From an uncultured Spirochaetia bacterium (GTDB taxonomy: Bacteria > Oederibacteriota > PGYV01 > Palsa-1178): a stretch of 64,000 bases of DNA. The position numbers were made by a program, and so were the translations under genes. Location of the stretch: positions 34,823 through 98,822 of the forward strand of contig CAYUDX010000011.1 in NCBI GenBank assembly GCA_964443355.1, written 5' to 3'. Under the pieces are notes generated by a model. That model worked only from the letters and a program-made list of their open reading frames with translations. It did not search any database and was not told where the DNA came from. The number at the start of each line of letters is the position of its first letter. Position 1 is the stretch's first letter. Below are positions 34,654 to 55,752 of the stretch, piece by piece.

Positions 34654-34695
34654 GCGCCATATAACGAAAAAAAAGGGAAAATGCGTGGAGGAAAA

Positions 34696-35586: not shown

Positions 35587-35652
35587 TTATATTTACAGCC
35601 GTATGAACGCACGGCGTACGCGTCAAATTTCGCTATGGGGTTAAAAGTTGAT

Positions 35653-35841: not shown

Positions 35842-36031
35842 TTCTTGTTTTCCTCCTTTTTATGCCCAACAGTTTGTTGATGTGATATTCCTGAATCTGA
35901 TTGGGGTCGTTCCTGCTTTTAAACCACCTGTTTACCGTGCAGAAAGCCACGTCAAGTTCACACGCCAGCTTCTGTTGCGATATCCTGTTTTCCAGCCTGT
36001 ATTTTTCCAATTCTTTCACTATGTTCTTCAT
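35813..36031 (-). CDS. XRE-family helix-turn-helix transcriptional regulator (72 aa)
   Basis: HTH_3 pattern ISQQKLACELDVAFCTVNRWFKSRNDP; a TTGACA...TATAAT promoter abuts the ATG, suggesting a leaderless mRNA. Confidence 0.6.
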   Translation of the reverse strand: MKNIVKELEKYRLENRISQQKLACELDVAFCTVNRWFKSRNDPNQIQEYHINKLLGIKRRKTRNDKDTGRTH

Positions 36032-36177
36032 ATAGCATATTATAGCAAATTATAGCATTTTGTCAAGCTTAAAAATTATTTATTTTTTTTGCATCCGGAT
36101 CAGATTGGCCGCGGAGTTTTTGAGTTTTTCTTTAGAAATTCTGTTATAATCATAAAAATGAAAAAGGAGGGCAGTTT

Positions 36178-37240: not shown

Positions 37241-37529
37241 AAATTCACTAACATGAATGTTTTCAGGGATCTTTAAAATTTGACAATCAGAGAGTATTTT
37301 TAGAAGATAATTTAGAAGTATATAATGCCATATAAACCTAACCTTTTTCAATTAATAAAAAATTTTACAGTTTTCTTTTATCATCTTTCTTGTGAAAAAT
37401 TACACTAACTTTTGCGGAAAAGGAGGCAAATAACAGCATATTGGTAGCATTTGAAAAAAGCATTTATCCTGAATATGGCGAAGTTGCATATTACGGAAAA
37501 AATACAAATCATCAAAAGGGAGAAAAAGC

Positions 37530-38045
37530 ATGCCCACAGTAAAAGTGTTGCCGGCGGACGTGAAAAAGTTGGACGAGATCATCAAAGCTTATGAAAACAA
37601 GCAGGGACGGGTTCTTGGCGTCCTGGAAGAGGCGCAGAAGATAAATAAGCACAATTTTTTGCCCGAGGATACCATCAATTATATCTCCTCGAAGCTCAAT
37701 GTGCCGTTGTCGCGGCTTTATAGCATAGTTACATTTTATTCTTTTTTTAACCTCAAACCGCAGGGGGATCACACCATAATCGTATGCAGGGGAACAGCCT
37801 GTCACACAAAAGGGTCAAAATCCCTTCTGGACGATGTCGGCGGCCAGATGGGCGGCACAAAGGAACTGGAAGGCGGCGAGCCGTCTTTCACAACGCCGGA
37901 CAACAAGTTTACAATAAGGACCGTGGCCTGTTTCGGGCAATGCGCGCTGGCGCCTGTTGTGTCAATAGACGGGGTCATCCATTCTAATGTAACATCGTCG
38001 CAGCTTCGCAGGCTCGTTCAAAAAACGCAGAAGGGGAGGAAATAG
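37530..38045 (+). CDS. NuoE/HndA-like [2Fe-2S] thioredoxin-like subunit (diaphorase/bifurcating hydrogenase gamma-type)
   Basis: CRGTACHTKG...CFGQCALAPV motif; AGGGAG ribosome-binding site. Confidence 0.85.
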   Translation: MPTVKVLPADVKKLDEIIKAYENKQGRVLGVLEEAQKINKHNFLPEDTINYISSKLNVPLSRLYSIVTFYSFFNLKPQGDHTIIVCRGTACHTKGSKSLLDDVGGQMGGTKELEGGEPSFTTPDNKFTIRTVACFGQCALAPVVSIDGVIHSNVTSSQLRRLVQKTQKGRK

Positions 38046-38047
38046 AA

Positions 38048-41000: not shown

Positions 41001-41203
41001 CCAGACTTTACAGGAAATTCGAATACAAGAACGAGGTGCCGTTGAAACCCGAAGGCGGCAGGAACACGAGGCCGAAAAAACTTGCCGTAAAGGAAAGGGT
41101 AACGAATTTTCAGGAAATACTTTCCGGCTACACGGGCGAACAGGCTCTTCGCGAATCAGTCAGGTGCCTGAGGTGCGACGTGCGCCCGGGCAACGAAGAA
41201 TAG
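38048..41203 (+). CDS. Triple-fusion flavoprotein: N-terminal HndB-like thioredoxin-like [2Fe-2S] domain, NuoF/HydB-like NADH-binding FMN 51-kDa core, and a C-terminal GltD/NfnB-like NAD(P)H:FAD oxidoreductase domain
   Basis: GMGTCGIGNG...CFGFC; GRGGAGFPVG, CNADEGDPGA, SCGKCTSCREG (NuoF); then CxxxC Fe-S motifs plus IAIIGAGPAGLTAAYYL and VAIIGAGNVSIDAA (GltD-like); 1051 aa. Confidence 0.85.
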   Translation: MKINDITALNNLQKKSLKKLLPDKPMIAVGMGTCGIGNGADELFMAIGKAIKTKKADIILNTVGCFGFCANEPLVNVYIPGQPLVILNKVAAKDATSIVEAVSKGNMPLKKAMCKIEQWDFLTSKIEYGKGLPQVPVWDEIPFFKGQKKMVLRDAGLINPEDIEEYIAVGGYQALLKSLTTMKPDGVLEEMKKSKLRGRGGAGFPVGRKWELMKNVKGDQKYVVCNADEGDPGAYMNRNEIESDPHALIEGMIIGAYVMGASKGIVYIRAEYPLAVERLKKAINQAKDNGFLGENIFGSGFNFDLDYVEGAGAFVCGEETALMASIEGKAGRSMPRPPFPAQKGIDGKPTNINNVETWENVPLILNRGGDFFAQTGTENSSGTKVFSLVGKIRNTGLVELPLGTPLEKIIYEMGEGAGKNKKIRAVQTGGPSGGCIPVESFNTPVDYESLNALGAIMGSGGMVVMDQDNCMVDVARYFVEFTSSESCGKCTSCREGLSQSMEILNRITKGKGTLEDIETLEKLAMVIKDSSLCGLGQTSANPVLTTLRYFRDEYKAHIIEKRCKAGVCENLFMALCENSCPMHMNIPAYLQMLKEGRIEDAFESTLRDNPLPGTLGRICHFHCKMRCRRDTVDESVAQGEIHRYLADTIYKMGKEKQLYTRLIKEKLPATGKKIAIIGAGPAGLTAAYYLVRLGHTVTVYDSHPLAGGILYYGIPAYRLPKDVLAKEIELIKKLGVKFVMNTMVGTDISFKTIAKENDSVIISVGAQKDASLDIPGAELKGVHPGYEFLEDHAKGKKLRIGKKVAIIGAGNVSIDAARTALRLGSEVTIVYRRDRNEMPANLHEIEDAEAEKINFRLMCGPTRILGDAKGNVKGLEVEKMKFGSIDRSGRRKPVGTGACEIIDCDTVILAVGEKVDSSFAKDLGIETNKDATIKTNPFTYRTSNSSFYAIGDAVTGPATAAEAMGIAKTTAEAVDFDLMKEHRFSRLYRKFEYKNEVPLKPEGGRNTRPKKLAVKERVTNFQEILSGYTGEQALRESVRCLRCDVRPGNEE

Positions 41204-41221
41204 TGAAAAGGAGAAAACCAA

Positions 41222-43000
41222 ATGGAGATAAAAAATCCGGTAAACGTAAAGATCAATAAAAATTCATACCAGGTCGAAAAAGGCTCCACGATACTGAAGG
41301 CATGCAGGGCGGCGGGAATAGAGATACCGACATTGTGTTTCCTCGAGGATGTTTCAAGCAACGCCTCATGCGGCATCTGCGTGGTAGAGGTAAAGAACGG
41401 CAAGTCGCTGATACGCTCGTGCATAACGGAAGTTTTTGAAAACATGGAAATATCAACGAATTCGGCAAGGGTAAGGGAAGCAAGGAAGATGAACCTCGAG
41501 CTTATCCTGGCAAACCACCCGAACGACTGCCTGAACTGCCTGCGCAACCAGAATTGCGAGCTGCAGAAGATGGCTTTTGAGCTCGGCATCAAGGAAACGC
41601 GTTTTGGAAGGACAAAAAAGCTCTCCGAGCTCGATGAAACATCGCCTTCCGTGGTAAGGGACCCGAACAAATGCATACTCTGCAAAAGATGCGTCAATGT
41701 GTGCGCGGATGTACAGACGGTTTACGCCATAGATATAACTCACAGGGGCATCAAAAGCAAAGTGACCCCGTATATGGACAAAGGGCTCGGCAACGTCGCG
41801 TGCACCAATTGCGGGCAGTGCGCCCTGGTGTGTCCGACCGGCGCCATCGTCGAAAAAGACAATACCGAAGAGGTCTGGAAAGAGCTCCAGGACCCGGAAA
41901 GAATAGTGCTTGTCCAGACGGCCCCGGCAATCAGGGTCGGCATAGGTGAAGCGATGGGCATGGAGCAGGGGGCCCTGGTAACCGGAAAAATGGTCTCAGC
42001 CCTGAGGAAACTCGGGTTTAACAAGGTATTCGACACGAATTTTACGGCCGACCTTACGATACTAGAGGAAGGGCACGAGCTTTTAAAAAGGCTCACAAAG
42101 GGCGGGACATTGCCCATGATAACATCCTGTTCGCCGGGCTGGATAAAATTTATCGAGCACTTTTTTCCGGAAGAAGTGGACCATCTCTCCACATGCAAAT
42201 CGCCGCAGCAGATGTTCGGCGCGGTAGCCAAGACCTATTACGCCGAAAAAATGCACATAGACCCGAGGAAAATATCGGTTGTATCCATAATGCCTTGCAC
42301 GGCGAAAAAGTATGAGGCAAAAAGGGGCGAGATGAAAGGCGCCTACGATTACTGGAAAGGCAGGATGAACCTTACCGAGGACGAAAAATTTTACGACGTT
42401 GATTACGTTCTCACAACAAGGGAACTTGCAAGGATGTTCACCGAGGCGGGAATACAGTTCGAATCCCTTCCCAAGGAAGAATTCGACAGCCCACTCGGGG
42501 CGTCCACCGGCGCGGCGGTGATATTCGGCGCCACAGGCGGAGTCATGGAAGCGGCGGTCAGGACGGTCTACGAAGTAGTTGTAGGCAAGCCCCTTGAAAA
42601 CCTTAATTTGATGCCGGTGAGGGGTTTTGAGGGAATAAGGGATGCCGAACTTGATCTGAACGGGACAAAGGTAAAAGTAGCTGTCGCGCACACCCTTAAA
42701 AACGCACGTAAACTTCTTGAGCAGATAGAAAAAGGCGAATCGCCCTATCATTTTATTGAGGTCATGACATGCCCCGGAGGATGCCTTGGCGGCGGCGGAC
42801 AGCCGATACCCACGACCTGGGACATCAGGAAGAAACGCGCGGAATCCATTTACGCCGAAGACAGCATGAAGGGGCTGCGCAAATCGCATGAGAACCCCGA
42901 GGTAAAGGCGCTTTATTCCGAGTTCCTGAAGGAGCCGCTCGGCCATCTTTCGCATGAGCTGCTCCATACGGAATACACAAAAAGAGGATATTTTATTTAA
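41222..43000 (+). CDS. hydA: [FeFe] hydrogenase large subunit, M3-type, with a non-canonical H-cluster L1 motif (TSCSPGW)
   Basis: N-terminal 2Fe-2S and HPNDC His-ligated 4Fe-4S domains, two ferredoxin-like CxxCxxCxxxCP motifs; L2 MPCTAKKYE; L3 EVMTCPGGCLGGGGQP; L1 reads ITSCSPGW (codons TCC TGT TCG CCG). Confidence 0.85.
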   Translation: MEIKNPVNVKINKNSYQVEKGSTILKACRAAGIEIPTLCFLEDVSSNASCGICVVEVKNGKSLIRSCITEVFENMEISTNSARVREARKMNLELILANHPNDCLNCLRNQNCELQKMAFELGIKETRFGRTKKLSELDETSPSVVRDPNKCILCKRCVNVCADVQTVYAIDITHRGIKSKVTPYMDKGLGNVACTNCGQCALVCPTGAIVEKDNTEEVWKELQDPERIVLVQTAPAIRVGIGEAMGMEQGALVTGKMVSALRKLGFNKVFDTNFTADLTILEEGHELLKRLTKGGTLPMITSCSPGWIKFIEHFFPEEVDHLSTCKSPQQMFGAVAKTYYAEKMHIDPRKISVVSIMPCTAKKYEAKRGEMKGAYDYWKGRMNLTEDEKFYDVDYVLTTRELARMFTEAGIQFESLPKEEFDSPLGASTGAAVIFGATGGVMEAAVRTVYEVVVGKPLENLNLMPVRGFEGIRDAELDLNGTKVKVAVAHTLKNARKLLEQIEKGESPYHFIEVMTCPGGCLGGGGQPIPTTWDIRKKRAESIYAEDSMKGLRKSHENPEVKALYSEFLKEPLGHLSHELLHTEYTKRGYFI

Positions 43001-43076
43001 AATGGTTTATAATAAAGACCGCCGGGATATCTGAAAAGCCCGGCGGGTTTTTAATAAACGCTGATGCGGAGAATAT

Positions 43077-43913
43077 ATGTATAAAATCACACTGAAGAAA
43101 CAGCTGACGAAGGACATCAAGCTCATGGGCGTACTCGCCCCGCATGTCGTGAAAAACGCGAAGGCCGGGAATTTTGTTATCGTGATACCAGGAGAGACCG
43201 GCGAAAGGGTCCCGCTTACCATTTATGATTGGGACTCAAAGAGCGGCGTTGTATATATCATCTTCCAGGAAGTGGGGGTTTCCACGGTAAAGCTGGGCAT
43301 GATGAACGAGGGCGATTCCGTGTATTCCATTGCGGGCCCGCTTGGCCGCCATTTCCACACCGAGAAATACGGCAATACGGTTGTCGTCGGCGGCGGCGTA
43401 GGAGTGCCGGCGATATTTCCGATAGCGAGGGCGCTTCGTTCCGAAGGCAACCGCGTGACATCCATCACGGGTTTCAGGAGCAGCGACCTTATCATCCTCG
43501 AAAAAGAAATGGGAACCGTTTCCGATAAGGTTATAACCGCCACGAACGACGGGTCAAGCGGCACAAAAGGGCTTGTGACCGATGCTCTGAAATCACTGCA
43601 TGATACCGGTGAAAAGATAGACCTGGTAGTGGCTGTGGGCCCCGTGGTCATGATGAAAGCCGTGTCCGAGCTTACAAAGCAGCTGGGGATAAAGACCATA
43701 GTTAGCCTGAACGCCCTCATGCTCGACGGGACAGGTATGTGCGGAGGCTGCAGGGTCACAATAGGCGGCAAGGTAAAATTCTCGTGCGTTGACGGCCCGG
43801 ATTTTGACGGACATCTTGTTAATTTCAACGAACTTACAAGCAGGCTCGCGACATTCAAGGCGGAAGAAAAAATATCGCTTGAGCACTGCAAAATACATCT
43901 GGCTGGCAGGTAA
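43077..43913 (+). CDS. nfnA: NfnA/SudB-like (PyrK-type) FAD/NAD-binding [2Fe-2S] subunit
   Basis: PyrK-like fold with a C-terminal CGGCRV...C motif; high similarity in pattern to NfnA (ferredoxin-NADP+ reductase α subunit). Confidence 0.8.
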   Translation: MYKITLKKQLTKDIKLMGVLAPHVVKNAKAGNFVIVIPGETGERVPLTIYDWDSKSGVVYIIFQEVGVSTVKLGMMNEGDSVYSIAGPLGRHFHTEKYGNTVVVGGGVGVPAIFPIARALRSEGNRVTSITGFRSSDLIILEKEMGTVSDKVITATNDGSSGTKGLVTDALKSLHDTGEKIDLVVAVGPVVMMKAVSELTKQLGIKTIVSLNALMLDGTGMCGGCRVTIGGKVKFSCVDGPDFDGHLVNFNELTSRLATFKAEEKISLEHCKIHLAGR

Positions 43914-43919
43914 ACAAAC

Positions 43920-45326
43920 ATGGCAAAAAAAGAACGCCTAAAAGTACGGCAGCAGGCGGCAAACGAAAGGATACGTAATTTCGAAGAAGTACCCTTCGGT
44001 TATGACGACAACGAGGCAAAACTCGAGGCGTCCCGCTGCCTTCAATGCAAGAACCCGACATGCATTCAGGGCTGTCCCGTCAATATAAACATAAAGGAAT
44101 TCATCAGTCAGATAGCCTCAGGGGACGTTGCCGGCGCTATCAAGACGATAAAAGAATCGAACAGCCTTCCGGCGGTCTGCGGAAGGGTATGCCCGCAGGA
44201 AACACAGTGCGAAGAAAAATGCGTCCTGTTAAAAACAGGGCAGGCGATCAATATCGGCGCTCTTGAGAGGTACGCAGCCGATTGGGAAGCCGCGAACATG
44301 GAAACAAAGGCACAGGTCATCACTCCGGTATTGGGCCGCGACGGCAAACAGATAAAAGTCGCGATAGCCGGCTCCGGACCGGCAGGACTGACCGTTGCCG
44401 GAGAACTTGCAAAGCTCGGTTATAAGGCGGTTATTTTTGAGGCCCTTCATCTGCCTGGAGGCGTGCTTGTATACGGCATTCCTGAATTCAGGCTGCCGAA
44501 GGCGATAGTGAAAAGGGAAGTCGATTACCTGAAAACACTCGGTGTGGAGATACAGACTGACGTACTTGTCGGGAAATCCTATACTATAGACGACCTGGTA
44601 CAGGATGGTTTTCAGGCTGTCTTTATAGGCGTAGGGGCCGGTACGCCGTCTTTTATGAACGTCCCGGGGGAAAATTTCAAAGGGGTTTATTCATCCAACG
44701 AGTTCCTTACGAGGATGAACCTTCTTAAAGCATATAAATTTCCGGAATACGACACGCCGGTCAAGCTTGGGAAAAAAGTCGCCGTGGTCGGGGCGGGAAA
44801 CGTGGCCATGGATTCGGCGCGTGTTTCCAGAAGGCTAAAGGGCGTGGAGGAGGTCCATATAATATACAGGCGTTCCGAGAAAGAAATGCCCGCCAGGCAC
44901 GAGGAGATCGAGCACGCTAAGGAAGAGGGGATAATACTGGACCTGCTTACCAATCCGGTTGAAATAATTTCCGATGAGAACGGTTTCGTATCAAAGATCA
45001 AATGCGTAAGGATGGAACTTTGCGAGCCCGACGCCTCGGGAAGATGCGGTACAAAGGCAATTCCGGGATCGGAATTCATCATGGAAGTCGACAATGTCAT
45101 CCCGGCGCTTGGGACAAAGGCCAATGAATTACTCACTACAAACGTCAAAGGCTTGAAATTAAACAAATGGGGTTACATAGAGGCAAACCCGGAGACCGGG
45201 GCTACTTCAATACCGGGAATATTCGCGGGCGGAGATATTTCAACGGGTTCGGCGACGGTTATAGCGGCAATGGGAGCCGGCAAAAAAGCCGCCGCAGCGA
45301 TCGACATTTATCTTAAGGCAAAGTAA
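43920..45326 (+). CDS. nfnB: NfnB/SudA/GltD-like NADPH-dependent oxidoreductase subunit (2×[4Fe-4S] plus FAD)
   Basis: CLQCKNPTCIQGCP...CGRVCPQETQCEEKC, IAGSGPAGLTVAGEL, VVGAGNVAMDSA; 7 nt after nfnA. Confidence 0.8.
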   Translation: MAKKERLKVRQQAANERIRNFEEVPFGYDDNEAKLEASRCLQCKNPTCIQGCPVNINIKEFISQIASGDVAGAIKTIKESNSLPAVCGRVCPQETQCEEKCVLLKTGQAINIGALERYAADWEAANMETKAQVITPVLGRDGKQIKVAIAGSGPAGLTVAGELAKLGYKAVIFEALHLPGGVLVYGIPEFRLPKAIVKREVDYLKTLGVEIQTDVLVGKSYTIDDLVQDGFQAVFIGVGAGTPSFMNVPGENFKGVYSSNEFLTRMNLLKAYKFPEYDTPVKLGKKVAVVGAGNVAMDSARVSRRLKGVEEVHIIYRRSEKEMPARHEEIEHAKEEGIILDLLTNPVEIISDENGFVSKIKCVRMELCEPDASGRCGTKAIPGSEFIMEVDNVIPALGTKANELLTTNVKGLKLNKWGYIEANPETGATSIPGIFAGGDISTGSATVIAAMGAGKKAAAAIDIYLKAK

Positions 45327-45647
45327 TTAATTAATATAGTTTGGGACAGGGACAAATCGCACTTTAACGTGTATCATATTGAAAAAGTTCAATAGATACC
45401 GACTATATCTTTATGCCCGGTATTGTCTAAAATCTTTTTTTCACAAGCAAATTGACAAATTGCTACCATTATGATATCATTTAAATGTTACCCGGTATTT
45501 TTCATTTTACTTTTAAAGAATATTATGGCGTTTTTTTTATCTTGACATAATTTGGGCTTCGCTGTATATTCTCACCAATTAAAGACTAACTTTTTACATA
45601 GTCACAGGAGAGTTCAGAGCCGCTCTCTGCCTTTAATATAAAAACAT

Positions 45648-45663
45648 GTGAAAATAATCACAT
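45648..45663. promoter_or_regulatory. TGTGA-N6-TCACA palindrome (CRP/FNR-type or Rex-type operator) ~30 nt upstream of the hnd-type operon
   Basis: aTGTGAaaataaTCACAt, centred ~35 nt upstream of the 45690 ATG. Confidence 0.45.
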
Positions 45664-45689
45664 ACTAAAATATACGGAGGTAAATGCAC

Positions 45690-46187
45690 ATGATGTTAGA
45701 AAAGCAAGAGATACAGCTTGAAAAACCGCTGCTTGATTTCATGGACCAATGGAAAGACAAGCCGGGCAATGAGATCATGGTACTGCACAAGATCCAGGAA
45801 ATATACGGGTATGTGCCGAGAAAAGTGGCAATGGAAGTGTCCAGGTTGATGGGCATACCGCTTGCGAAGATTTACGGCATTATTACATTTTATCATTTAT
45901 TCAAGCTTTCCAAACCCGGCAAGAACCAGATCCAGGTGTGCCTGGGTACGGCCTGCTATCTTAAAGGCAGCAATGACATTATACAGGAGATAGAGAATAT
46001 CCTGGGAGTCGCGGTAAATTCCACAAGCGACGATGGAATGTTTTCCCTCGAAATAGTCCGTTGCGTCGGTTGCTGCGGACTGGCTCCGGTGATGCTAGTC
46101 AACGGAAAAACCCACGGCAACGTGCTGAAAACAGACCTGCCGAAGATCCTTGGCGAATACAGCAAAAAAGAGGAGGCGCTTAAATAA
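45690..46187 (+). CDS. HndA/HydC/NuoE-like [2Fe-2S] subunit of a bifurcating [FeFe] hydrogenase
   Basis: CLGTACYLKG...CVGCCGLAPV; GGAGG ribosome-binding site. Confidence 0.85.
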   Translation: MMLEKQEIQLEKPLLDFMDQWKDKPGNEIMVLHKIQEIYGYVPRKVAMEVSRLMGIPLAKIYGIITFYHLFKLSKPGKNQIQVCLGTACYLKGSNDIIQEIENILGVAVNSTSDDGMFSLEIVRCVGCCGLAPVMLVNGKTHGNVLKTDLPKILGEYSKKEEALK

Positions 46188-46570
46188 TGGAAAAGATGAA
46201 AAAGGGCGACCTTGAAAAATTCAGGAAAAATTACAAGACAGAGCAAAAGGGAGAAGTAATGATCTCCATGGGCACCTGCGGGATAGCCGCCGGCGGCGAC
46301 GCTGTATATAAGATATTCGAGGACGAACTGAAAAGCAACGGGCTTGAGGGAAGCGTAAAGCTCAAGAAAACAGGCTGCCTGGGGATGTGCTTTTGCGAGC
46401 CCAATATGGTTGTAAAGATAAACGGCATGCCCGAGATACTTTACGGCAACGTCGACGAAAAAGCCGCCCACGCGATCGTGTCGGAACACATTATCAAGAA
46501 AAACATACTGAACAATTATGTTATATTCATGCCTTCGACGGATACCGGCAAGAATATATTCAAAGACTAG
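46187..46570 (+). CDS. HndB-like small thioredoxin-like [2Fe-2S] ferredoxin subunit
   Basis: MGTCGIAAGG...GCLGMCFCEP; homologous to the N-terminal domain of the 38048 fusion protein. Confidence 0.75.
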   Translation: MEKMKKGDLEKFRKNYKTEQKGEVMISMGTCGIAAGGDAVYKIFEDELKSNGLEGSVKLKKTGCLGMCFCEPNMVVKINGMPEILYGNVDEKAAHAIVSEHIIKKNILNNYVIFMPSTDTGKNIFKD

Positions 46571-46580
46571 GAGGCCTGCG

Positions 46581-48347
46581 ATGAATAAACAATATATTTT
46601 TGTCTGGGAGCCCGCCGCATCAAAGGACAAGCCCGTTTACAATACTTTCGTAAAGCTTGTCAATGAAAAGGGGCTGACGGATTCTTTTGAGGTTATAAGG
46701 AGCCCGTTCATAGGATTTACGACGGACGGGCCCATAGCCAGGGTTATGCCGGATGGCGTCATCTACACCAAATTCAAGGCTGAGGATGCGGACGACATTA
46801 TCAGCGCCCATATGAAGGGCGCAAGGCTAGATAAGTTCGTCCTTTCCTATGACAATAAGTTCCTGCCGATCAAGGAAAAGGATGCGACAAGCAAGCAATT
46901 TAAAATTGTCCTGAGGAACATTGGATACCTCGATCCGGAATCCATCGACGAGTACATAATGAGGGGCGGATACAAGGCCCTTGAAAAGGCGCTTTTTGAC
47001 CTCAATGAGGACAAGGTCATAGTGGAGATGAAGGCATCCGGGCTGCGCGGCAGGGGCGGCGCGGGATTCCCGACCGGCCTGAAATGGGAACTTACAAAAA
47101 AAGAAAAGAACGCGGAAAAATATGTGATATGCAATGCCGATGAAGGAGATCCGGGAGCTTATATGGACAGGAGCGTCCTTGAAGGCGACCCGCATTCCGT
47201 GATCGAGGGCATGATAATCGGCGGTTACGCGGTAGGTTGCACTCGCGGTTTTATTTACATAAGGGCGGAATATCCGCTGGCAATTGAAAGGCTTGAAAAA
47301 GCGCTGAAATCCGCAAGGGAATACGGGCTTCTCGGGAACAACATACTGGGTTCCAGTTTTTCCTTTGACATCGAGCTGCGCTGGGGCGCGGGCGCGTTCG
47401 TGTGCGGCGAAGAAACCGCCCTTATCGCGTCGATCGAGGGAAAAAGGGGAAATCCGAGGCCGCGGCCCCCATTCCCGTCGGTTTCCGGACTCTGGGGAAA
47501 ACCCACTTTTATCAATAATGTAGAGACATGGGCAAACGTTCCCGCAATAGTCGAAAGGGGCGGCGCCTGGTTCGCCTCTATCGGAACTGAAAAATCAAAG
47601 GGGACAAAAGTTTTTGCCGTGACCGGAAAGGTCACGAACCCCGGCCTCGTGGAAGTGCCCATGGGCACGACCATCAGGGAAATAGTTTATGACATTTGCG
47701 GAGGCATCCAGAACGGCAAGAAATTCAAGGCCGTGCAGACAGGCGGGCCGTCCGGAGGCGTCATACCGGAAAAATACCTGGATATGCCCATAGATTACGA
47801 ATCGCTACAATCGATAGGATCCATCATGGGATCAGGCGGCCTCATTGTAATGGATGAGGACGACTGCATGGTCGACGTCAACAAGTTCTACCTGCAGTTC
47901 TCGGTCGACGAATCGTGCGGAAAATGCTCGCCGTGCAGGATAGGCGGCAAGCAGATACTCGAATTGCTCGAAAAAATATCAAAAGGCAACGGCGACCCGG
48001 AGGACATAACGAAGATCAGGTCCATATCGATCGCAATGCAGAAGGCATCGCTTTGCGCCCTCGGCCAGACGACGCCAAACCCGGTCATTTCCGCCCTCAC
48101 TTATTTTGAGGACGAGTATATGGAGCACATTACGGACAAGAAATGCCTGACCGGGAAATGCCGCGACCTCGTTGAATACACGATAATCACGGAAAAATGC
48201 ATCGGCTGCGGGCTTTGCGCGATAAGGTGCCCCGTGAAATGCATCAGCGGAGAGAAACGCAAGCCCTATGTTATAGACAAAAAGCAGTGCATAAAATGCG
48301 GTGAATGCTACAACGTCTGCAAGTTCGACGCCGTAAAGAGAGGATGA
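46581..48347 (+). CDS. HndC/HydB/NuoF-like NAD(P)H-binding FMN flavoprotein subunit with a C-terminal 2×[4Fe-4S] ferredoxin domain
   Basis: GRGGAGFPTG, CNADEGDPGA, SCGKCSPCRIG; C-terminal CIGCGLCAIRCP...CIKCGECYNVC; AGGAGG ribosome-binding site. Confidence 0.9.
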   Translation: MNKQYIFVWEPAASKDKPVYNTFVKLVNEKGLTDSFEVIRSPFIGFTTDGPIARVMPDGVIYTKFKAEDADDIISAHMKGARLDKFVLSYDNKFLPIKEKDATSKQFKIVLRNIGYLDPESIDEYIMRGGYKALEKALFDLNEDKVIVEMKASGLRGRGGAGFPTGLKWELTKKEKNAEKYVICNADEGDPGAYMDRSVLEGDPHSVIEGMIIGGYAVGCTRGFIYIRAEYPLAIERLEKALKSAREYGLLGNNILGSSFSFDIELRWGAGAFVCGEETALIASIEGKRGNPRPRPPFPSVSGLWGKPTFINNVETWANVPAIVERGGAWFASIGTEKSKGTKVFAVTGKVTNPGLVEVPMGTTIREIVYDICGGIQNGKKFKAVQTGGPSGGVIPEKYLDMPIDYESLQSIGSIMGSGGLIVMDEDDCMVDVNKFYLQFSVDESCGKCSPCRIGGKQILELLEKISKGNGDPEDITKIRSISIAMQKASLCALGQTTPNPVISALTYFEDEYMEHITDKKCLTGKCRDLVEYTIITEKCIGCGLCAIRCPVKCISGEKRKPYVIDKKQCIKCGECYNVCKFDAVKRG

Positions 48348-48353
48348 CAAAAC

Positions 48354-50126
48354 ATGTATACAACAAAAACAACCGGTAAAATGATAAACATGAAGATAAA
48401 CGGAAAGGATTATTCGGTCGATTCAGGCATGACCATACTGGAGGCGGCAAGGCTTGCGCACGTCAAGATACCGACGCTCTGCAAGCACGACGACCTGCCC
48501 GCAACCGCGTCATGCGGCATTTGCGTCGTAAAGGCGAAAGGCAACAGAAAACTTCTGCGCGCCTGCTGCACCTACGTGGAACCCAACATGGAGATCACTA
48601 CGCACGACGGCGAGCTTTACCAGGTAAGGAAGAACGTCCTTGACCTGATCCTCTCGTCCCATCCTTTCGTATGCCTGACATGCCTCAGGAACGGGGATTG
48701 CGAACTGCAGACCCTGGCAGAGGAATTCGGCATAAGGTCCAGGCCATACAAGGAAATGCTCCAGGACATCAAAAAAGACACATCCACAAAAGCCGTTGTG
48801 CTTGACCCGATAAAATGCATCCATTGCGGGCGCTGCGTGGAAGTGTGCCAGAACATACAGAAGGTTTACGCCCTTGAATTTTTGGACAGGGGATTTGAAT
48901 CCAGGATAGCCCCGGCAGGAGACATTTCGCTATCCGATTCGCCGTGCATTAAATGCGGACAGTGCTCGGCGCATTGCCCGGTGGGCGCGCTTGTCGAGTT
49001 CAGCGAGATTCCGAAGGTCTGGGACGCGCTAGGAAATCCCGACGTTTACCCCATAGTTCAGATAGCGCCGGCTGTAAGGGTGGCAATAGGAGAGGCTTTC
49101 GGATTGCCTTCCGGCACGATCCTTACCAAGAAACTTTACGCCCTTTTCAGAAGACTCGGTTTTAAGGCTGTTTTTGACACAAATTTCGGGGCCGACCTGA
49201 CGATCATGGAAGAAGGCTCGGAACTGATTGAAAGGATCAAGACCGGCAACGGCGCAATGCCCCTTATCACAAGCTGCTGCCCGGCATGGGTTGATTTCCT
49301 TGAAAAATATTATCCGGACCTCATCGAACATTTTTCCACGGCCAAGTCGCCGCATGAAATGGTCGGAGCGCTGGCGAAAACATACTATGCGCAAAAGGCC
49401 GGGATAGACCCTTCAAAAATGTTCGTTGTCTCGGTAATGCCCTGCACTGCAAAGAAATACGAGGTATCAAGGACCGCGGACATGAGTTCGTCGGGTTTCC
49501 AGGATGTCGACGTATCCATCACGACGAGGGAACTTGTCAGGATGATAAAATCAAGCGGCATCAAGATGCTTGAACTCGATGATGAAGAGGCTGATTCCAT
49601 TCTGGGGACATACACCGGCGCCGGCACCATATTCGGCGCCACCGGAGGCGTCATGGAAGCCGCCATAAGGACCGCATACTTTTTGCTCACCAATAAGAAC
49701 CTTGACAACATCAATGTCGAAGTCGTCAGGGGCTTGACAGGGGTAAAAAGCGGCGTCATAGACGCCGGCGGGACAAAGATACGAGTGGCGGTCGCCCACG
49801 GCACGGGGAATGTGCGCGCCGTCATGGATGAATTGCGCGCCGCGAAAAAGGCGGGAGCGCCTATGCCGTACGACTTTATAGAAGTCATGGCATGCGAAGG
49901 CGGATGCATAGCAGGCGGAGGACAGCCATACCGTGTCACCAATGCCGTGAGAAAAACAAGGACCGAAGGCATATACAAGGACGACGTGCAGTCAAAACTC
50001 AGGCAGTCTCATGAAAATCCGGACGTACAGAAACTTTACAAGGATTTCCTCGAGAAACCGCTTTCACACAAGGCGCATAAGCTGCTCCATAACCATTACT
50101 CGGCAAGGCCGATCTATTACAAATAG
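48354..50126 (+). CDS. hydA: [FeFe] hydrogenase catalytic subunit HydA/HndD, M3-type, canonical H-cluster motifs
   Basis: L1 TSCCPAW, L2 MPCTAKKYE, L3 EVMACEGGCIAGGGQP; N-terminal 2Fe-2S/4Fe-4S accessory domains. Confidence 0.95.
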   Translation: MYTTKTTGKMINMKINGKDYSVDSGMTILEAARLAHVKIPTLCKHDDLPATASCGICVVKAKGNRKLLRACCTYVEPNMEITTHDGELYQVRKNVLDLILSSHPFVCLTCLRNGDCELQTLAEEFGIRSRPYKEMLQDIKKDTSTKAVVLDPIKCIHCGRCVEVCQNIQKVYALEFLDRGFESRIAPAGDISLSDSPCIKCGQCSAHCPVGALVEFSEIPKVWDALGNPDVYPIVQIAPAVRVAIGEAFGLPSGTILTKKLYALFRRLGFKAVFDTNFGADLTIMEEGSELIERIKTGNGAMPLITSCCPAWVDFLEKYYPDLIEHFSTAKSPHEMVGALAKTYYAQKAGIDPSKMFVVSVMPCTAKKYEVSRTADMSSSGFQDVDVSITTRELVRMIKSSGIKMLELDDEEADSILGTYTGAGTIFGATGGVMEAAIRTAYFLLTNKNLDNINVEVVRGLTGVKSGVIDAGGTKIRVAVAHGTGNVRAVMDELRAAKKAGAPMPYDFIEVMACEGGCIAGGGQPYRVTNAVRKTRTEGIYKDDVQSKLRQSHENPDVQKLYKDFLEKPLSHKAHKLLHNHYSARPIYYK

Positions 50127-50159: not shown

Positions 50160-50198
50160 GGCGGCCGGGCGGATAAAACCACCCGGCCGTTTTTTTTT
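50160..50198 (+). terminator. Rho-independent terminator after hydA
   Basis: cggccggg...cccggccg stem followed by T9. Confidence 0.8.
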
Positions 50199-50304: not shown

Positions 50305-51783
50305 GTGAAGAGCATGCTTACACAAAAACAGTTATCCTGGAAACAGGACAGGATACGTCAGGTCATGAAGTATCTTGATGAGGAAAAAAGGCCGGATTTT
50401 ATCGACGACGGCCTCATAGAAGGGCTGATCGCGGCGCCTTCGGCCATTGACAGGGTGAAAATATCCGAACTTTTGACGAAAGCAAAGGCGTTAAAAGGGC
50501 TTACGCCCGGGGAAGCCGCATACCTTATGAACATAAACGACAATGACATCTGGAATGAAATATTTGCCACAGCAATGGAAGTAAAATTGTCGGTTTACGG
50601 CAACAGGATAGTTCTTTTCGCTCCGTTATACATTTCGGATGAATGCGTCAACGACTGCGTTTATTGCGGCTACAGGAGCTCGAACAAGGAAATAAACCAC
50701 CAGGGGCTCACCGACGATGAATTAAGGGCGGAAATCAGGGCTATGACCGACATGGGGCAGAAAAGGATAGTGGCGGTTTACGGCGAAGGGCCGGAAAACG
50801 ACGCCGATTATATCGCGCACAGCATGGAAGTCATATATTCGGTGAAAAACGGAAGAGGCGAGATCAGGCGTGTGAACATCAACGCGGCCCCGCTTTTCGT
50901 GGACGAATACAAGAAAATAAAAGCCGCCGGCATCGGGACGTTCCAGGTATTTCAGGAAACCTATAATAAGGCCAGGTATAAGCAGCTTCACGGGACCGAC
51001 AACGTAAAAAGCATCTATAAATGGCGGCTTTTGTCGCAGCACCGGGCTCAGGAGGCGGGGATATCCGACGTTGCAATAGGGGCCCTTTTCGGGATATATG
51101 ACTGGAGATTTGAGGTCATGGGACTGCTTTATCATGCCGCAGACATGGACAGGGAATTCGGCGTAGGGTCGCATACAATATCGTTTCCGCGGCTGAATCC
51201 GGCGTTGAACACCCCTTTTTACACAAAGAACCAATATAAAGTTACGGACGAGGACATGAAAAAGATAATAGCCATACTCAGGCTTTCCGTGCCTTATACC
51301 GGGTTGATACTTACTGCAAGGGAGAATCCGCAGCTTAGGCATGACCTTATAAAGCTCGGTGTCTCGCAGATCGACGCCGGTTCAAATATAGCAATCGGCG
51401 GTTACCAGAAGGGCAGGGATGCTTCAAAGGAACAGTTCCAACTTTCCGACAACCGCTCGCTGGATGATTGCATTTCAGAGCTGGTGGACGAAGGCTACAT
51501 ACCCTCGTTTTGCACGGCGGATTACAGGTGCGGCAGGGTCGGATGCGAGTTCATGGAGCTGGCAAAATCGGGGAAAATCAAGAATTTATGCATACCCAAC
51601 GCGGTGTTGACATTCGAGGAATACCTGCTCGATTACGCTTCGCCGGCTGTAAAGGATAAGGGCGAGAAGCTCCTGGCGGGTTATGTGAAATTTGTCAGGG
51701 AAAGCTACTCCGCGGTAATGGCAAAAAACGTTGAAGATTATCTTGTCAGGATAAAGAACGGAGAGAGAGATCTGTACTTTTAA
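50305..51783 (+). CDS. hydG: [FeFe] hydrogenase maturase HydG (radical SAM tyrosine lyase)
   Basis: CVNDCVYCGY radical-SAM motif, ThiH-like core, C-terminal Cys-rich (CTADYRCGRVGCEF) auxiliary cluster region; start ambiguous (GTG 50305 or ATG 50314). Confidence 0.85.
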   Translation: MKSMLTQKQLSWKQDRIRQVMKYLDEEKRPDFIDDGLIEGLIAAPSAIDRVKISELLTKAKALKGLTPGEAAYLMNINDNDIWNEIFATAMEVKLSVYGNRIVLFAPLYISDECVNDCVYCGYRSSNKEINHQGLTDDELRAEIRAMTDMGQKRIVAVYGEGPENDADYIAHSMEVIYSVKNGRGEIRRVNINAAPLFVDEYKKIKAAGIGTFQVFQETYNKARYKQLHGTDNVKSIYKWRLLSQHRAQEAGISDVAIGALFGIYDWRFEVMGLLYHAADMDREFGVGSHTISFPRLNPALNTPFYTKNQYKVTDEDMKKIIAILRLSVPYTGLILTARENPQLRHDLIKLGVSQIDAGSNIAIGGYQKGRDASKEQFQLSDNRSLDDCISELVDEGYIPSFCTADYRCGRVGCEFMELAKSGKIKNLCIPNAVLTFEEYLLDYASPAVKDKGEKLLAGYVKFVRESYSAVMAKNVEDYLVRIKNGERDLYF

Positions 51784-51814
51784 CCGTAATCCATCAACAT
51801 GAATGGGGCCAATA

Positions 51815-53227
51815 ATGAGGATTGAGAAGGATATGCTGGGGGAAAAAGAAATTCCCGACGACAAATATTACGGGATACACACGCTGCGTGCAATGGAAAA
51901 TTTCGGCCCCGCAATCGAGGCCATAGACCCCGTATTTATCAAAGGTTATTTGTTCGTAAAAAAAGCCGCCTGCCTGACCAATATCGAGATAAAAACCCTT
52001 GACGAAAGACGCGGCAGGGCCATTATAGGGGCCATAGACGCCCTGCTTGCTTCCCGAGATCATTCGCAGATATGCGTGAATCCGCTATCCGGAGGGGCAG
52101 GCACGTCGATAAACATGAACGTGAACGAAGTCATAGCCAACATGGCGCTTGAACTTGCAGGAAGAAAAAAAGGGGACTACGCTTTTATAAGCCCGCTTGA
52201 CCACGTCAATATGCACCAGTCCACCAACGACACCTTCCCGACGGCCCTGCGCGTGGCAATGATGCTGCGTCTGAAAACCCTTGAGAATGCCCTTATTTCG
52301 CTCCAGGAGTCCCTGCAGGCGCGTGAAAAGGAGTTCTCCGACGTTGTACGGCTGGCAAGGACAGAGCTCATGGATGCCCTGCCGACGACCGTAGGAATGC
52401 AATTCTCCGCATACGCCGAGGCAATAGGCCGCGACAGGTGGAGGATCTTCAAGTCGGAAGAACGCATCAAGACGGTGAACCTCGGAGGAACGGCAATAGG
52501 AACCGGTTTTGGAGCTCCGCAGGAATATATTTTCAGGGCATGGCAGCATTTGAAGGCCCTTTCAGGGCTCTCCCTTACAAGGGCGGAGAATCTGGTCGAC
52601 TCAACCCAGAATTTCGACCAGATAATCGAGGTAATGGCCATGGTAAAAGCGCTGGCCGTCAACATTATGAAGATATCAGGGGATATAAGGCTTTCCGCAT
52701 CCGGGCCGGAAGGCGGGCTGGGAGAATTTATTTTACCGTCCCTTCAGGAGGGTTCCTCAATAATGGCCGGCAAAGTAAACCCTGTAATCGCGGAATTCTG
52801 CGCTCAGTCATCACTGCAGGTCATAGCAAACGATTCTGCAATTGCCACGGCAGCCGGGCTCGGAAATCTTGACCTTAACCAGTACGCGCCACTTATAGCG
52901 CATATGTCACTTAAGAACCTTAACCTTATGGAAATGTCGGTAAGTTTGTTGGACCAGAAGCTTGTTAGAGGAATCAAACTAAGCATGGACAGGATCAATA
53001 ATAACCTTCACGGCTCCCTGGCCATATTGACATATTTAAGCCTGACAATAGGCCATGACAGGGCTTCCGAGACCGCCTTTAAGATGAAAGAGACCGGAAA
53101 AAGCGCCCGCGAGATCCTTGATGAAAGCGGCATCTTAAGCGTCCAGAAATATGACGAACTTGTCCGGCCCGAAAATATCAGGATGCTTGGGATAAAGACC
53201 GGTTCCAAGGGAGACTTATCCACATGA
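51815..53227 (+). CDS. Aspartate ammonia-lyase / class II fumarase-family lyase
   Basis: Fumarate-lyase signature GSSIMAGKVNP; ~470 aa; embedded between hydG and hydF. Confidence 0.8.
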   Translation: MRIEKDMLGEKEIPDDKYYGIHTLRAMENFGPAIEAIDPVFIKGYLFVKKAACLTNIEIKTLDERRGRAIIGAIDALLASRDHSQICVNPLSGGAGTSINMNVNEVIANMALELAGRKKGDYAFISPLDHVNMHQSTNDTFPTALRVAMMLRLKTLENALISLQESLQAREKEFSDVVRLARTELMDALPTTVGMQFSAYAEAIGRDRWRIFKSEERIKTVNLGGTAIGTGFGAPQEYIFRAWQHLKALSGLSLTRAENLVDSTQNFDQIIEVMAMVKALAVNIMKISGDIRLSASGPEGGLGEFILPSLQEGSSIMAGKVNPVIAEFCAQSSLQVIANDSAIATAAGLGNLDLNQYAPLIAHMSLKNLNLMEMSVSLLDQKLVRGIKLSMDRINNNLHGSLAILTYLSLTIGHDRASETAFKMKETGKSAREILDESGILSVQKYDELVRPENIRMLGIKTGSKGDLST

Positions 53228-54438
53228 CGCAGACCCCGTCGGCCAACAGGTTGCAGATAGGTATCTTTGGAAGGCGCAATGCCGGAAAATCTTCCTTCAT
53301 AAACGCCCTTACGGGACAAAATTTGGCCATTGTTTCGGATACTCCGGGCACCACAACAGACCCTGTAGCCAAGGCTGTGGAGATACGCGGATTGGGGTCG
53401 GTTATGCTCTATGATACGGCAGGTTTGGACGATACAGGAGAGCTTGGTGACAAGAGGGTGGCCAGGTCAAGAGAGGTCATGAAGAAGGTTAACTTCGGGG
53501 TCATTATTACCACCTATTCCTCGTGTGGCAAGCTCGAAGAAGAGCTCATAAATGAGTTCAAAAATACGGGTAAAACATGCATTGTTTTGTTCAACAAAAT
53601 AGACATTGAACAAAAGGATGAAGAAAAAGAAAAAATCTTTAAAAACAATAAAACAAACTATTTTTCTTTAAGCGCCACCACAGGACAAAACATTGACGAA
53701 ATTAGGAGCCTGATAGTCCGACTTTGTTCAGAACTTCAGGCTGAAGATTCCACGATATTGGGGGATCTTATAAGCCAGGGAAGTTTGGTCGTTCTTGTCG
53801 TACCAATTGACCTTGGCGCGCCAAAGGGCAGGCTTATTTTACCCCAGGTCCAGGTCATCAGGGACATCCTGGACAATGACGCCATTGCCGTAACTGTGAA
53901 GGAACGGGAACTGCAATATACGCTAAAAACTTTGGGTCAAAAACCGGCATTGGTGGTATGCGATTCTCAGGTGGTTTTAAAGGCTGCAGGAGACGTACCG
54001 GACGGCATAAAACTCACCACTTTTTCCATTCTTTTTTCCCGACTCAAGGGCGACCTGGCTGAACTTGTCAGGGGAGTCAAGACTGTGGATAACTTAAAGG
54101 ACGGTGACAGGGTTCTTATCATGGAGGCCTGCACTCATCACGCTCAGGCTGATGATATCGGCCGGGTAAAAATCCCCCGTTGGTTAAGGCAATACACGGG
54201 CAAGAACCTTGAATTTGAATCGAACGCCGGCCCCTATGTGAGCAAGGATTTGAGCCGCTATAAACTCATAATTGCCTGCGGCGGCTGCATGATAAACCGG
54301 CAGGAAATGCTCTCCAGGATGAAGGACTCGGCAGCCTTAAACGTGCCCATGACCAATTACGGTGTCCTGATTTCATACGTCCAGGGAGTGGCTAAAAGGG
54401 TACTTGAACCTTTCCCGGAAACGCGGGGGATATTATAA
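53224..54438 (+). CDS. hydF: [FeFe] hydrogenase maturase HydF (GTPase scaffold)
   Basis: G1 GRRNAGKSS, G3 DTAG; C-terminal CxH...HCxxC-type cluster motif (EACTHHAQ...ACGGCM); ATGA overlap with the upstream gene. Confidence 0.9.
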   Translation: MTQTPSANRLQIGIFGRRNAGKSSFINALTGQNLAIVSDTPGTTTDPVAKAVEIRGLGSVMLYDTAGLDDTGELGDKRVARSREVMKKVNFGVIITTYSSCGKLEEELINEFKNTGKTCIVLFNKIDIEQKDEEKEKIFKNNKTNYFSLSATTGQNIDEIRSLIVRLCSELQAEDSTILGDLISQGSLVVLVVPIDLGAPKGRLILPQVQVIRDILDNDAIAVTVKERELQYTLKTLGQKPALVVCDSQVVLKAAGDVPDGIKLTTFSILFSRLKGDLAELVRGVKTVDNLKDGDRVLIMEACTHHAQADDIGRVKIPRWLRQYTGKNLEFESNAGPYVSKDLSRYKLIIACGGCMINRQEMLSRMKDSAALNVPMTNYGVLISYVQGVAKRVLEPFPETRGIL

Positions 54439-54714
54439 ACAGGCATTCTGTATGGGCCGCCCTATGTGGCGGCCCGGCATTGGTTTTGCTGTGTCGGTAT
54501 TGTGGCCTTGAAACTGTTGTTGCGGGACAGGCGGAATTTTTTTACGGCACTGCCGTCCGAAGCTTTGCTTGAGGCAGATCGGAACAAAGACCTGGAAATT
54601 AAAGTTTTACCTTTGCTTAATTTACAAAGTAGTTTTTGTTGGACGTTTGGCCGAAAAAAGTTCCGCCTGTCCCGCGCAGGTTTCCTGATGATAAAAGGAT
54701 CATGGTGAATTACA

Positions 54715-55752
54715 ATGGACAAAACAACAGAATATATTAAACAAATAACCGCCGGCAACGCCACGGCTGAAAATATTACATACCTGCTTTCAATACCCAC
54801 GCGCGAGGAATTCAGGCCTGTTTTTGACGAATCGGCCCGCATATGCAAAAGGTATTTTGGCGACCGGGTTTTCATGCGCGGTATAATTGAATTTTCCAAT
54901 TATTGCCGAAAGGGGTGTTATTATTGCGGCATAAATCGGGCAAATAAAAATATAGGACGCTACAGGATCCCGCTTGAGGAAATTATCGAAGCCGCTGTTT
55001 TCATGAAAAAGAACAGGGCCATGACCGTTGTCCTGCAGTCCGGCGAGGACCCGGGGTACGACAGGATTCTCATGGAAGCCATACGGACAATAAAAAACAA
55101 GCTTAATATGGCCGTGACCATATCTGTCGGCGAAAGGGAGCCTGATGTCTACAGGCAATTCCTTAAGGCCGGGGCGGACAGGTATCTGCTGCGAATAGAG
55201 ACCACAGACAGGGTCTTATTCAAGAAACTCCATCCGGACGATGACCTGCAATACCGTAAAAAGTGCCTTTATGCCCTCAAGAAGCTCGGTTTTGAGGTAG
55301 GGACGGGAATTATGGTGGGTTTACCCGGGCAGAGCCTGGAATCGATAGCTGACGATCTTTTGTTCTTTAGGGAACTTAACCCCGCAATGGTTGGCATCGG
55401 GCCGTTTTTGGCCCATAAGGAGACAAAGCTTAAGGATTTTAAGAACACGGACATATTTCCCACGCTTAAGACACTGGCCTTAATACGGCTGATACTCCCG
55501 AAATCAAACCTTCCTGCCACCACTGCAATGGGAACAATATCTCCTACGGGAAGGCAACAGGCCCTGAAGATCGGCGCCAATGTCATAATGCCTAATTTTA
55601 CCCCGTCCAAATACCGCGAAAGATACAAGCTTTACGACAACAAGATATGCGTCTCCGAGGAATACGGAAAATGCGCTTCCTGCACATCGGCCATAGCAAT
55701 GGCAGCCGGTAAGCGCATAGTCAAGAGCAAAGGCTATTCCAGGAACAAATGA
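54715..55752 (+). CDS. hydE: [FeFe] hydrogenase maturase HydE (radical SAM, BioB-like)
   Basis: CRKGCYYCG radical-SAM motif; ~345 aa biotin-synthase-like. Confidence 0.85.
   Translation: MDKTTEYIKQITAGNATAENITYLLSIPTREEFRPVFDESARICKRYFGDRVFMRGIIEFSNYCRKGCYYCGINRANKNIGRYRIPLEEIIEAAVFMKKNRAMTVVLQSGEDPGYDRILMEAIRTIKNKLNMAVTISVGEREPDVYRQFLKAGADRYLLRIETTDRVLFKKLHPDDDLQYRKKCLYALKKLGFEVGTGIMVGLPGQSLESIADDLLFFRELNPAMVGIGPFLAHKETKLKDFKNTDIFPTLKTLALIRLILPKSNLPATTAMGTISPTGRQQALKIGANVIMPNFTPSKYRERYKLYDNKICVSEEYGKCASCTSAIAMAAGKRIVKSKGYSRNK

Follow-up and report, generated by a model that had tools for sequence, protein, structure and literature searches.

Genes and cofactor sites of the hnd operon

The 64,000-nt window analysed here (positions 34,823 to 98,822 of contig CAYUDX010000011.1, assembly GCA_964443355.1; coordinates below count from its first letter) belongs to an uncultured member of candidate division FCPU426/Goldbacteria. 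Its plus strand carries, at 45690-50126, a four-gene operon, hndA-hndB-hndC-hndD, which we consider likely to encode a cytoplasmic multimeric [FeFe] hydrogenase of the HydABC/Hnd type (Bfu, group A3/'A6'), probably reversible, confurcating and controlled by Rex. The grounds for this assignment are gene content, motifs, homology, synteny, phylogenetic separation and operator conservation, and from them we infer bifurcation, nucleotide specificity, physiological direction, Rex control and the metal of HndB. A second, variant hydrogenase operon lies upstream, and H-cluster maturation genes follow downstream.

The original prediction, made from the letters of the window, had placed four genes here in Hnd order (NuoE-like, HndB, NuoF-like, HydA). 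Open reading frames (ORFs), Pfam domains and motifs recover all four at 45690-50126 on the plus strand, and Pfam confirms their order, which is common to about 70 related loci. The genes are translationally coupled, overlapping or closely spaced and with ribosome-binding sites (RBSs), and the region is a self-contained operon with its own promoter and its own terminator. The closest genomic matches of HndD are in FCPU426 metagenome-assembled genomes (MAGs) from bog and palsa peat (95-88% identity), and one 'Spirochaetia' MAG matches at 96% identity; by their 16S sequences, FCPU426 and Goldbacteria are the same group (PMC7031533).

The first gene, hndA (bfuC; 45690-46187), encodes the NuoE-like subunit with the C1 [2Fe-2S] site (PF01257, 2Fe-2S_thioredx, E 2e-44). 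Its ORF opens at 45684, and we place the start at 45690 because of a conserved ATGATG and the spacing to the RBS GGAGGT at 45676-45681. The C1 ligands are C86-x4-C91 and C127-x3-C131 (numbered from the 45684 ORF). Among solved structures its best relatives are 7t2r_C, the top match, 7q4v_C and 8a6t_C, and 2auv_A is also found (E 5e-19). The ATG of hndB (bfuD; 46187-46570) overlaps the hndA stop codon (TAATG). This gene encodes a free-standing thioredoxin-like module of 127 amino acids (aa) with a weak PF01257 match (E 7e-7), whose best matches are N-terminal B5 domains from BfuB chains (9bov_B, 8oh5_B and 9n5u_B), with 7t2r_B also found. JGI labels some of its homologues 'HndB'.

The HndB module had been described as a small ferredoxin, a description that its conserved residues do not bear out. 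Across 68 homologues C31, C64, C68 and E71 never vary, and 57 of the 68 also have C70. The invariant site is therefore of the 3Cys+Glu type, which binds Zn2+ in NfnB of Caldicellulosiruptor saccharolyticus (Csac) (PMC11829005), and HndB of the model enzyme from S. (Solidesulfovibrio/Desulfovibrio) fructosivorans is believed to be without any redox centre (PMC10084766). HndB thus carries a predicted metal site formed by C31, C64, C68, (C70) and E71, with the identity of the bound metal put forward by analogy.

The NuoF-like flavin mononucleotide (FMN)/NAD(H) subunit is encoded by hndC (bfuB; 46581-48347; 588 aa). An alternative start at 46518, giving a 609-aa ORF, was rejected because AGGAGG lies six nt before 46581 and the orthologues begin at the same MNKQY. 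Pfam identifies Complex1_51K (E 4e-48), SLBB, NADH_4Fe-4S (E 2e-29) and C-terminal Fer4 domains. The FMN/NAD(H) motifs are GRGGAGFPTG at residue 157 and ADEGDPG at 186, and the N3-type [4Fe-4S] site B1 is made up of CGKCSPC at 446 together with C492. Between the core and the C-terminal domain, a Cys3His site (Zn/B2; C429/H516/C522/C527), predicted to bind metal, aligns with its equivalents in 7t2r_B and 9n5u_B; most solved members hold Zn2+ there, and Schut 2022 names it 'B2'. The C-terminal 2x[4Fe-4S] domain proposed for this subunit is present as two CxxCxxCxxxC motifs, CIGCGLCAIRC (residues 540-550) and CIKCGECYNVC (residues 570-580), which correspond to B3/B4, and the alignment of this part with 7t2r_B, 7q4v_B and 9n5u_B is gap-free. 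HndC scores 765, 734 and 717 bits, respectively, against these three chains.

The last gene, hndD (bfuA; 48354-50126), encodes the M3-type [FeFe] hydrogenase catalytic subunit (HydA) of 590 aa, with the Pfam domains Fer2_4, NADH-G_4Fe-4S_3, two copies of Fer4, Fe_hyd_lg_C (E 4e-91) and Fe_hyd_SSU. All canonical HydA motifs had been claimed for it and all are intact, both in the H-cluster domain (L1 TSCCPAW at 306, L2 MPCTAKKYE at 362, L3 EVMACEGGCIAGGGQP at 510) and in a complete F-domain, with sites for a [2Fe-2S] cluster (C43/C54/C57/C71-72), a His-ligated [4Fe-4S] cluster (H103-C107-C110-C116) and two ferredoxin-type [4Fe-4S] clusters (CxxCxxCxxxC at 155 and 198). HndD reaches 798 bits against a cutoff of 765 for the NCBIfam model NF040763, 'NADH-dependent [FeFe] hydrogenase, group A6' (FeFe_hydrog_A6). 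Against HydA1 of Acetobacterium woodii (7q4v_A) it scores 577 bits at 48.5% identity, and against HydA1 of Thermoanaerobacter kivui 561 bits at 46%.

The N terminus of HndC is where the enzyme parts from the canonical description it had been given. Its thioredoxin-like domain is present and alignable, and residues 1-183 are free of cysteine, the first being residue 184; the N-terminal [2Fe-2S] site, named B5 in Schut 2022 (PMC9304861) and 'B2' in Katsyv 2023 (PMC10021017), has no Cys ligand at all. The ligand-less domain spans residues 1 to about 105 (46581-46900). Among the related loci fetched for comparison (L-numbers), the N terminus is Cys-less throughout the clade with at least 66% HndD identity (FCPU426, Lentisphaerota, L009 and L010). 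Treponema-type orthologues keep CGGTGC...CFGFC, and in L068, L076 and L079 the N-terminal ligands have degenerated independently, with B3/B4 kept.

Promoter, operator and terminator

The hnd promoter, on the plus strand, consists of a -35 element TTGACA (45542-45547), a 17-nt spacer and an extended -10 element TGTATATT (45563-45570), with 11 of 12 matches in a consensus scan. Six orthologous upstream regions, although diverged in the flanking sequence, all keep TTGACA and TGTATA(TT) unchanged. Further into the leader, a plus-strand stem-loop GGAGAG...CTCTC occupies 45607-45629 (terminator-like scan match 45615-45629) and is followed by a T-rich tract to about 45640. The sequence of the stem changes among relatives while its pairing and the T-run are kept, and the element may act as an attenuator or as an RNA-stabilising hairpin. 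No known RNA or riboswitch was found in the 357-nt hnd leader by Rfam, either over the whole window at gathering thresholds or over 45300-45700 at E <= 1.

Closer to hndA lies a Rex-like palindromic operator, ATGTGAAAATAATCACAT, recovered by a motif scan at 45646-45663 (strand-neutral). The Rex consensus is an 18-bp element, TTGTGAA-N4-TTCACAA; the operator differs from the full consensus at three positions and has a perfect TGTGA-N6-TCACA core. It is the sole site with this core in the window, even with one mismatch allowed. The GTGAA...TCACA halves are invariant, at about -38 from hndA, in L001, L003, L004, L005 and L084, and related sites stand 5′ of hndA in L081, L083 (two copies), L008 and L010. 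The 1.3 Mb of fetched loci contain 0.013 such sites per kb when up to two mismatches are allowed. The variant operon has a Rex-like box of its own, TTGTGAAAAATTACACTA at 37390-37407, which is kept in L084 amid diverged sequence, and the presence of such palindromes before both operons suggests common control responsive to NADH/NAD+. A Rex site has also been predicted 5′ of the hnd operon of S. fructosivorans (PMC10084766).

At the 3′ end, the strong terminator that had been proposed is supported by folding. A GGCCGGG..CCCGGCC hairpin at 50162-50189 is followed by T9, so that the intrinsic terminator covers 50162-50198 on the plus strand, with a folding energy of -22 to -25 kcal/mol (z = -3.0). 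A hairpin with a T-run stands at the equal position in L001, L003 and L083. The consensus terminator scan missed this element, which has a 12-nt loop region, and folding recovered it.

Proposed function and the N-terminal metal site

By analogy with solved homologues, HndD would make or split H2 at its H-cluster and exchange electrons, via four accessory clusters, with the HndC-HndA core. There, a 'flavobicluster' of FMN, the B1 [4Fe-4S] cluster and the HndA [2Fe-2S] cluster would couple NAD(H) to ferredoxin, which would be served by the C-terminal B3/B4 clusters of HndC. The solved structures nearest to HndC, HndD and HndA all belong to Bfu complexes that bifurcate electrons. In T. kivui, deleting the B3/B4 domain left low bifurcation activity only (PMC10021017), and B3/B4 is what sets bifurcating members apart from non-bifurcating homologues, which lack it (PMC9304861). 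In a host that is likely to be fermentative, the confurcating direction would be the most plausible one, NADH and reduced ferredoxin together yielding H2, with a high NADH/NAD+ ratio derepressing transcription through the Rex-type operator just 5′ of hndA. Confurcating H2 evolution is likelier than the H2 uptake stressed in the original prediction because the putative NADH-responsive operator is combined with a fermentative, polymer-degrading lifestyle, as proposed for FCPU426/Goldbacteria (PMC7031533). The metabolic picture of this phylum of peat and wetland bacteria, thought to degrade plant polymers, gains an Hnd/HydABC-type hydrogenase with promoter, operator, terminator and maturases. Such an enzyme is a standard means of getting rid of NADH and reduced ferredoxin in the form of H2, and would thereby feed methanogens.

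The hnd operon is real, intact and well conserved; its family is a known one, its phylum little studied. Among the closest known systems, the tetrameric, bifurcating HndABCD of S. fructosivorans (group A3) has the same four subunits in the same gene order. Sequence likeness to that enzyme rests on the match of HndA to 2auv_A, the C-terminal domain of D. fructosovorans HndA, and for HndB and HndD on the JGI names of homologues. The two differ in that HndC of the window lacks the N-terminal [2Fe-2S] Cys ligands, in that HndB of the window has a conserved Cys3Glu site with an additional Cys whereas its model counterpart is believed to be without a redox centre, and in their hosts, a sulfate reducer there and probably a fermenter here. 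The HydABC(D) enzymes of A. woodii and T. kivui, solved by cryo-electron microscopy (7Q4V, 8A5E, 8A6T), provide the best solved matches of HndD and some of the best for HndC and HndA. They share the HydA cofactor motifs, B1, the Zn site, B3/B4 and C1 with the window enzyme, but their HydB has an N-terminal four-Cys [2Fe-2S] cluster that HndC lacks. The BfuBC core of Acetomicrobium mobile NiFe-HydABCSL (7T2R) is the top solved match of both HndC and HndA, with FMN, B1, B3/B4 and C1 conserved; there the catalytic module is [NiFe] rather than [FeFe].

Several points weigh against a confurcating, NAD-linked and Rex-controlled enzyme. B5 has been held to be conserved in all Bfu enzymes (PMC9304861) and the BfuB of the window has no ligands for it, while in one model the N-terminal cluster gates NAD(P)+ affinity (PMC10021017); with these ligands absent, bifurcation is not to be taken for granted. 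T. kivui HydABC binds NADP+ (PMC10021017), and a preference for NAD or NADP is not readable from sequence. As for control, a tblastn search of the window with a B. subtilis Rex query, a weak test, returned no rex gene, and the TGTGA-N6-TCACA core would equally suit a CRP/FNR-type regulator. The operator also lies about 70-90 nt downstream of the promoter, beyond the leader hairpin, which is not the commonest Rex geometry.

The Cys-free residues 1-183 of HndC could mean that the gating cluster has been lost and that the complex is a non-bifurcating NADH-dependent hydrogenase, of the type of S. wolfei Hyd1ABC or S. aciditrophicus HydAB. Removal of the N-terminal cluster from T. kivui HydABC, after which NAD(P)+ affinity no longer changed with redox state (PMC10021017), is in keeping with such a reading. 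We nevertheless judge it unlikely. The characterised homologues of this kind lack both B3/B4 and B2 (PMC9304861, PMC11406978), and HndC has both. Csac NfnABC carries Zn at B5 and still bifurcates, for which its authors proposed a minimal B1-FMN-C1 'flavobicluster' (PMC11829005). HndC has also kept its thioredoxin-like fold, HndB would provide a conserved metal site, and the independent losses of B5 ligands in L068, L076 and L079 likewise occurred in hnd lineages that keep B3/B4.

An NADP(H)-linked enzyme, as in T. kivui HydABC and C. autoethanogenum Hyt, is a somewhat less remote alternative, though still improbable; the neighbouring operons would then not be split between NAD and NADP. It draws on the JGI/KEGG-style names of homologues ('NADP-reducing hydrogenase HndB/HndD'), as Hnd itself was first named, and on the binding of NADP+ by T. 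kivui HydB (PMC10021017). Later work on the model Hnd enzyme, however, showed that it works with NAD+ (PMC10084766), HndD falls in an NADH-dependent group of NCBIfam, and an operator of the NADH-sensing Rex type suits an enzyme that consumes NADH.

The single departure from the textbook enzyme, a ligand-less HndC domain paired with a Cys-rich HndB, offers a modest lead. The sequence GxCGxAAG...CxGxCxxEP (3Cys+Glu) is shared by HndB, the N terminus of the upstream fusion protein described below and Csac NfnABC (9N5U). The Csac enzyme is a transhydrogenase in which the domain is fused to BfuB and binds Zn, whereas HndB of the window is a separate polypeptide with the extra Cys C70. The resulting signature, CCCCE, occurs in seven of nine fetched loci with a Cys-lost HndC and in none of 52 with an intact site. 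It is conceivable, if doubtful, that in this clade the N-terminal [2Fe-2S] site has been handed from HndC to the free-standing HndB. The association remains a lead because it comes essentially from one clade, and thus one evolutionary event, and because the three independent losses (L068, L076 and L079) have an HndB without C70.

Natural variation at this thioredoxin-like site bears on the dispute over the N-terminal cluster, seen variously as a gate, as a dead end and as dispensable. Should HndB bind a [2Fe-2S] cluster and dock at the position of the HndC domain, this would be the first defined function for HndB/BfuD, and the cluster taken in one model for the NAD(P)+-affinity gate would then exist naturally 'in trans'. 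If HndB binds only Zn, the clade would instead provide natural proof, among [FeFe] hydrogenases, that the cluster is dispensable for bifurcation.

Paired hydrogenases and the surrounding gene island

The variant operon (37530-45326), identified by Pfam and NCBIfam on the same strand, comprises a NuoE-like gene (37530-38045), a 1051-aa fusion gene (38048-41203), a hydA gene (41222-43000) and NfnA-like (43077-43913) and NfnB-like (43920-45326) genes. The fusion protein joins a NuoF core to a DPD_II (Fer4_20) domain and a flavin adenine dinucleotide (FAD)/NAD(P) module like GltD/NfnB. This architecture is the published 'sub-type I BfuB', in which DPD_II and the FAD/NAD(P) module replace B3/B4 (PMC11406978). 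With its NADP-type flavoprotein module and Nfn-like genes, the variant may link H2 to NADP(H), and a putative division of labour, with NAD/ferredoxin for hnd and NADP for the variant, would be plausible.

The tandem arrangement had been offered with the caveat that the contig might join two organisms at about 45.4 kb. In 4.4-kb windows between 44 and 49 kb the tetranucleotide correlation is 0.91-0.93, while the window as a whole averages 0.895 (sd 0.039), and third-position GC content (GC3) is 0.56-0.64 for every gene of both hydrogenase operons. The full layout of variant operon, hnd and maturases recurs in L001 and L004, in L081 (HndD identity 77%) and, without the Nfn genes, in the Goldbacteria contig L083 (HndD identity 75%). 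L084-L086, representing 24 contigs drawn from different samples, are syntenic from glnA as far as the lyase gene. Since composition is uniform, with no break at 45.4 kb in tetranucleotides or GC3, and the same junction and flanks are found in these independent assemblies (L001, L004, L081, L083 and L084-L086), an assembly chimera is refuted; nothing was found in its support, we give it practically no weight, and the pairing is genuine. In one MAG, MFD05705 (L003), both operons lie on one 1.7-Mb contig and are not adjacent.

The spacer between the operons varies among loci. In L083 it holds a CxxCxxCC protein and a divergent TetR regulator rather than NfnAB (5934-7037), and in L005 about 2.5 kb of other sequence (4840-7345). 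In L008, NfnAB-like genes stand directly 5′ of hnd (2777-5045) and the variant hydrogenase is absent.

A counterpart for every hnd subunit, fused or free, had been claimed upstream. Pairwise comparison bears this out for all four subunits, with identities of 31% for HndA and the NuoE-like protein, 33% for HndB and the N-terminal domain of the fusion (E 8e-11), 51% for HndC and the fusion over their NuoF cores, and 48% for HndD and the upstream HydA. It does not hold for the C-terminal B3/B4 domain of HndC, which has no homologue upstream and whose place is taken by the DPD_II/Fer4_20 and FAD/NAD(P) modules. The distinction between canonical and variant applies to the NuoF-like subunit and not to HydA, because the upstream HydA is the closer of the two to characterised enzymes: it scores 629 and 610 bits against the A. 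woodii and T. kivui proteins, compared with 577 and 561 for HndD, and it too exceeds the NF040763 cutoff (883 bits). Its L1 motif, TSCSPGW (residue 301), has Ser in place of the proton-relay Cys, and its L3 is EVMTCPGGC. We rejected the idea that this Cys-to-Ser change marks a defective or sensory enzyme, as A. woodii HydA1 has the same TSCSPGW; Ser occupies the fifth position of the P1 motif in most Bfu subtypes (PMC11406978).

The original prediction had further proposed an ancient duplication followed by domain fusion. Orthologues of HndD at 60-75% identity occur in Lentisphaerota, Spirochaetota/Treponema and other phyla, invariably set among hndABCD genes and frequently accompanied by hydG/hydF, and those of the upstream HydA, at 72-78%, in Goldbacteria, Bacteroidota, Ignavibacteriales and others. 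We built a bootstrapped neighbour-joining tree of 111 HydA sequences with CpI as outgroup, sampling the top matches of each paralog. Each paralog set is monophyletic in 100 of 100 bootstraps, and the pair from the window are sisters in none (0/100). The tree informs the deeper relation little, as only 69 of 100 bootstraps group both clades to the exclusion of A. woodii and T. kivui. Because the clades are separate, monophyletic and each spread over several phyla, and the window pair are never sisters, the paralogy is old and family-wide. The two operons represent deep paralogy between known Bfu subtypes and not a duplication at the locus; as worded, the proposal is no more than loosely right. 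Spread of Bfu subtypes has been attributed largely to horizontal transfer (PMC11406978).

The adjacency, shared orientation and matching subunit order of the operons might still recall a tandem duplication in the FCPU426 lineage, after which the upstream copy fused GltD and recruited Nfn. This we consider very improbable: the paralogs are just 31-51% identical, orthologues 60-78% identical exist in other phyla (Spirochaetota and Lentisphaerota for hnd; Bacteroidota, Ignavibacteriales and Acidobacteriota-like lineages for the variant), and the tree keeps the two clades apart. Moreover, L003 and L006-L012 carry hnd loci without the variant, and proteins of NuoF-DPD_II-FAD architecture form a published subtype that is widespread (PMC11406978).

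Genomes with several Bfu subtypes, like the NuoF-GltD fusion, have already been published, so that the present finding is incremental. In Hydrogenedentota, Zheng & Huang 2024 describe genomes with up to five BfuABC subtypes, likewise deeply diverged, and gain and loss of BfuD (= HndB) among Bfu hydrogenases (PMC11406978). The window differs in its phylum and in that its subtypes are adjacent, accompanied by NfnAB-like and maturase genes, with the adjacency conserved across the phylum.

The H-cluster maturation set lies directly 3′ of hnd (50305-55752), with hydG (50305-51783), an aspartate-ammonia-lyase-like gene (51803-53227), hydF (53224-54438) and hydE (54715-55752), all assigned by Pfam on the plus strand. 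Synteny of maturation genes with hnd is held in FCPU426/Goldbacteria, Spirochaetota and other loci. The lyase gene is found in FCPU426/Goldbacteria and L008 and is absent from L009, L010 and L081; ammonia-lyases have a published role in synthesis of the dithiomethylamine (DTMA) bridge (PMC11736057). Together, hnd, the variant operon and hydG/lyase/hydF/hydE form a hydrogenase gene island conserved within the phylum, and the conserved adjacency of two Bfu subtypes and Nfn-like genes suggests a co-regulated, redox-balancing island.

Farther upstream lie a type III glutamine synthetase gene on the minus strand (30106-32217), a sigma-54 activator with two GAF domains (32530-34653) and two ORFs without Pfam match (34681-35586 and 36178-37092), an order (30106-37092) that is repeated in L084-L086. 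The 304-aa ORF among these neighbours also occurs just 5′ of hndA in L003. Downstream, a MetH-type cobalamin-dependent methionine synthase gene (61514-63940) is likewise present in L081, extending the synteny.

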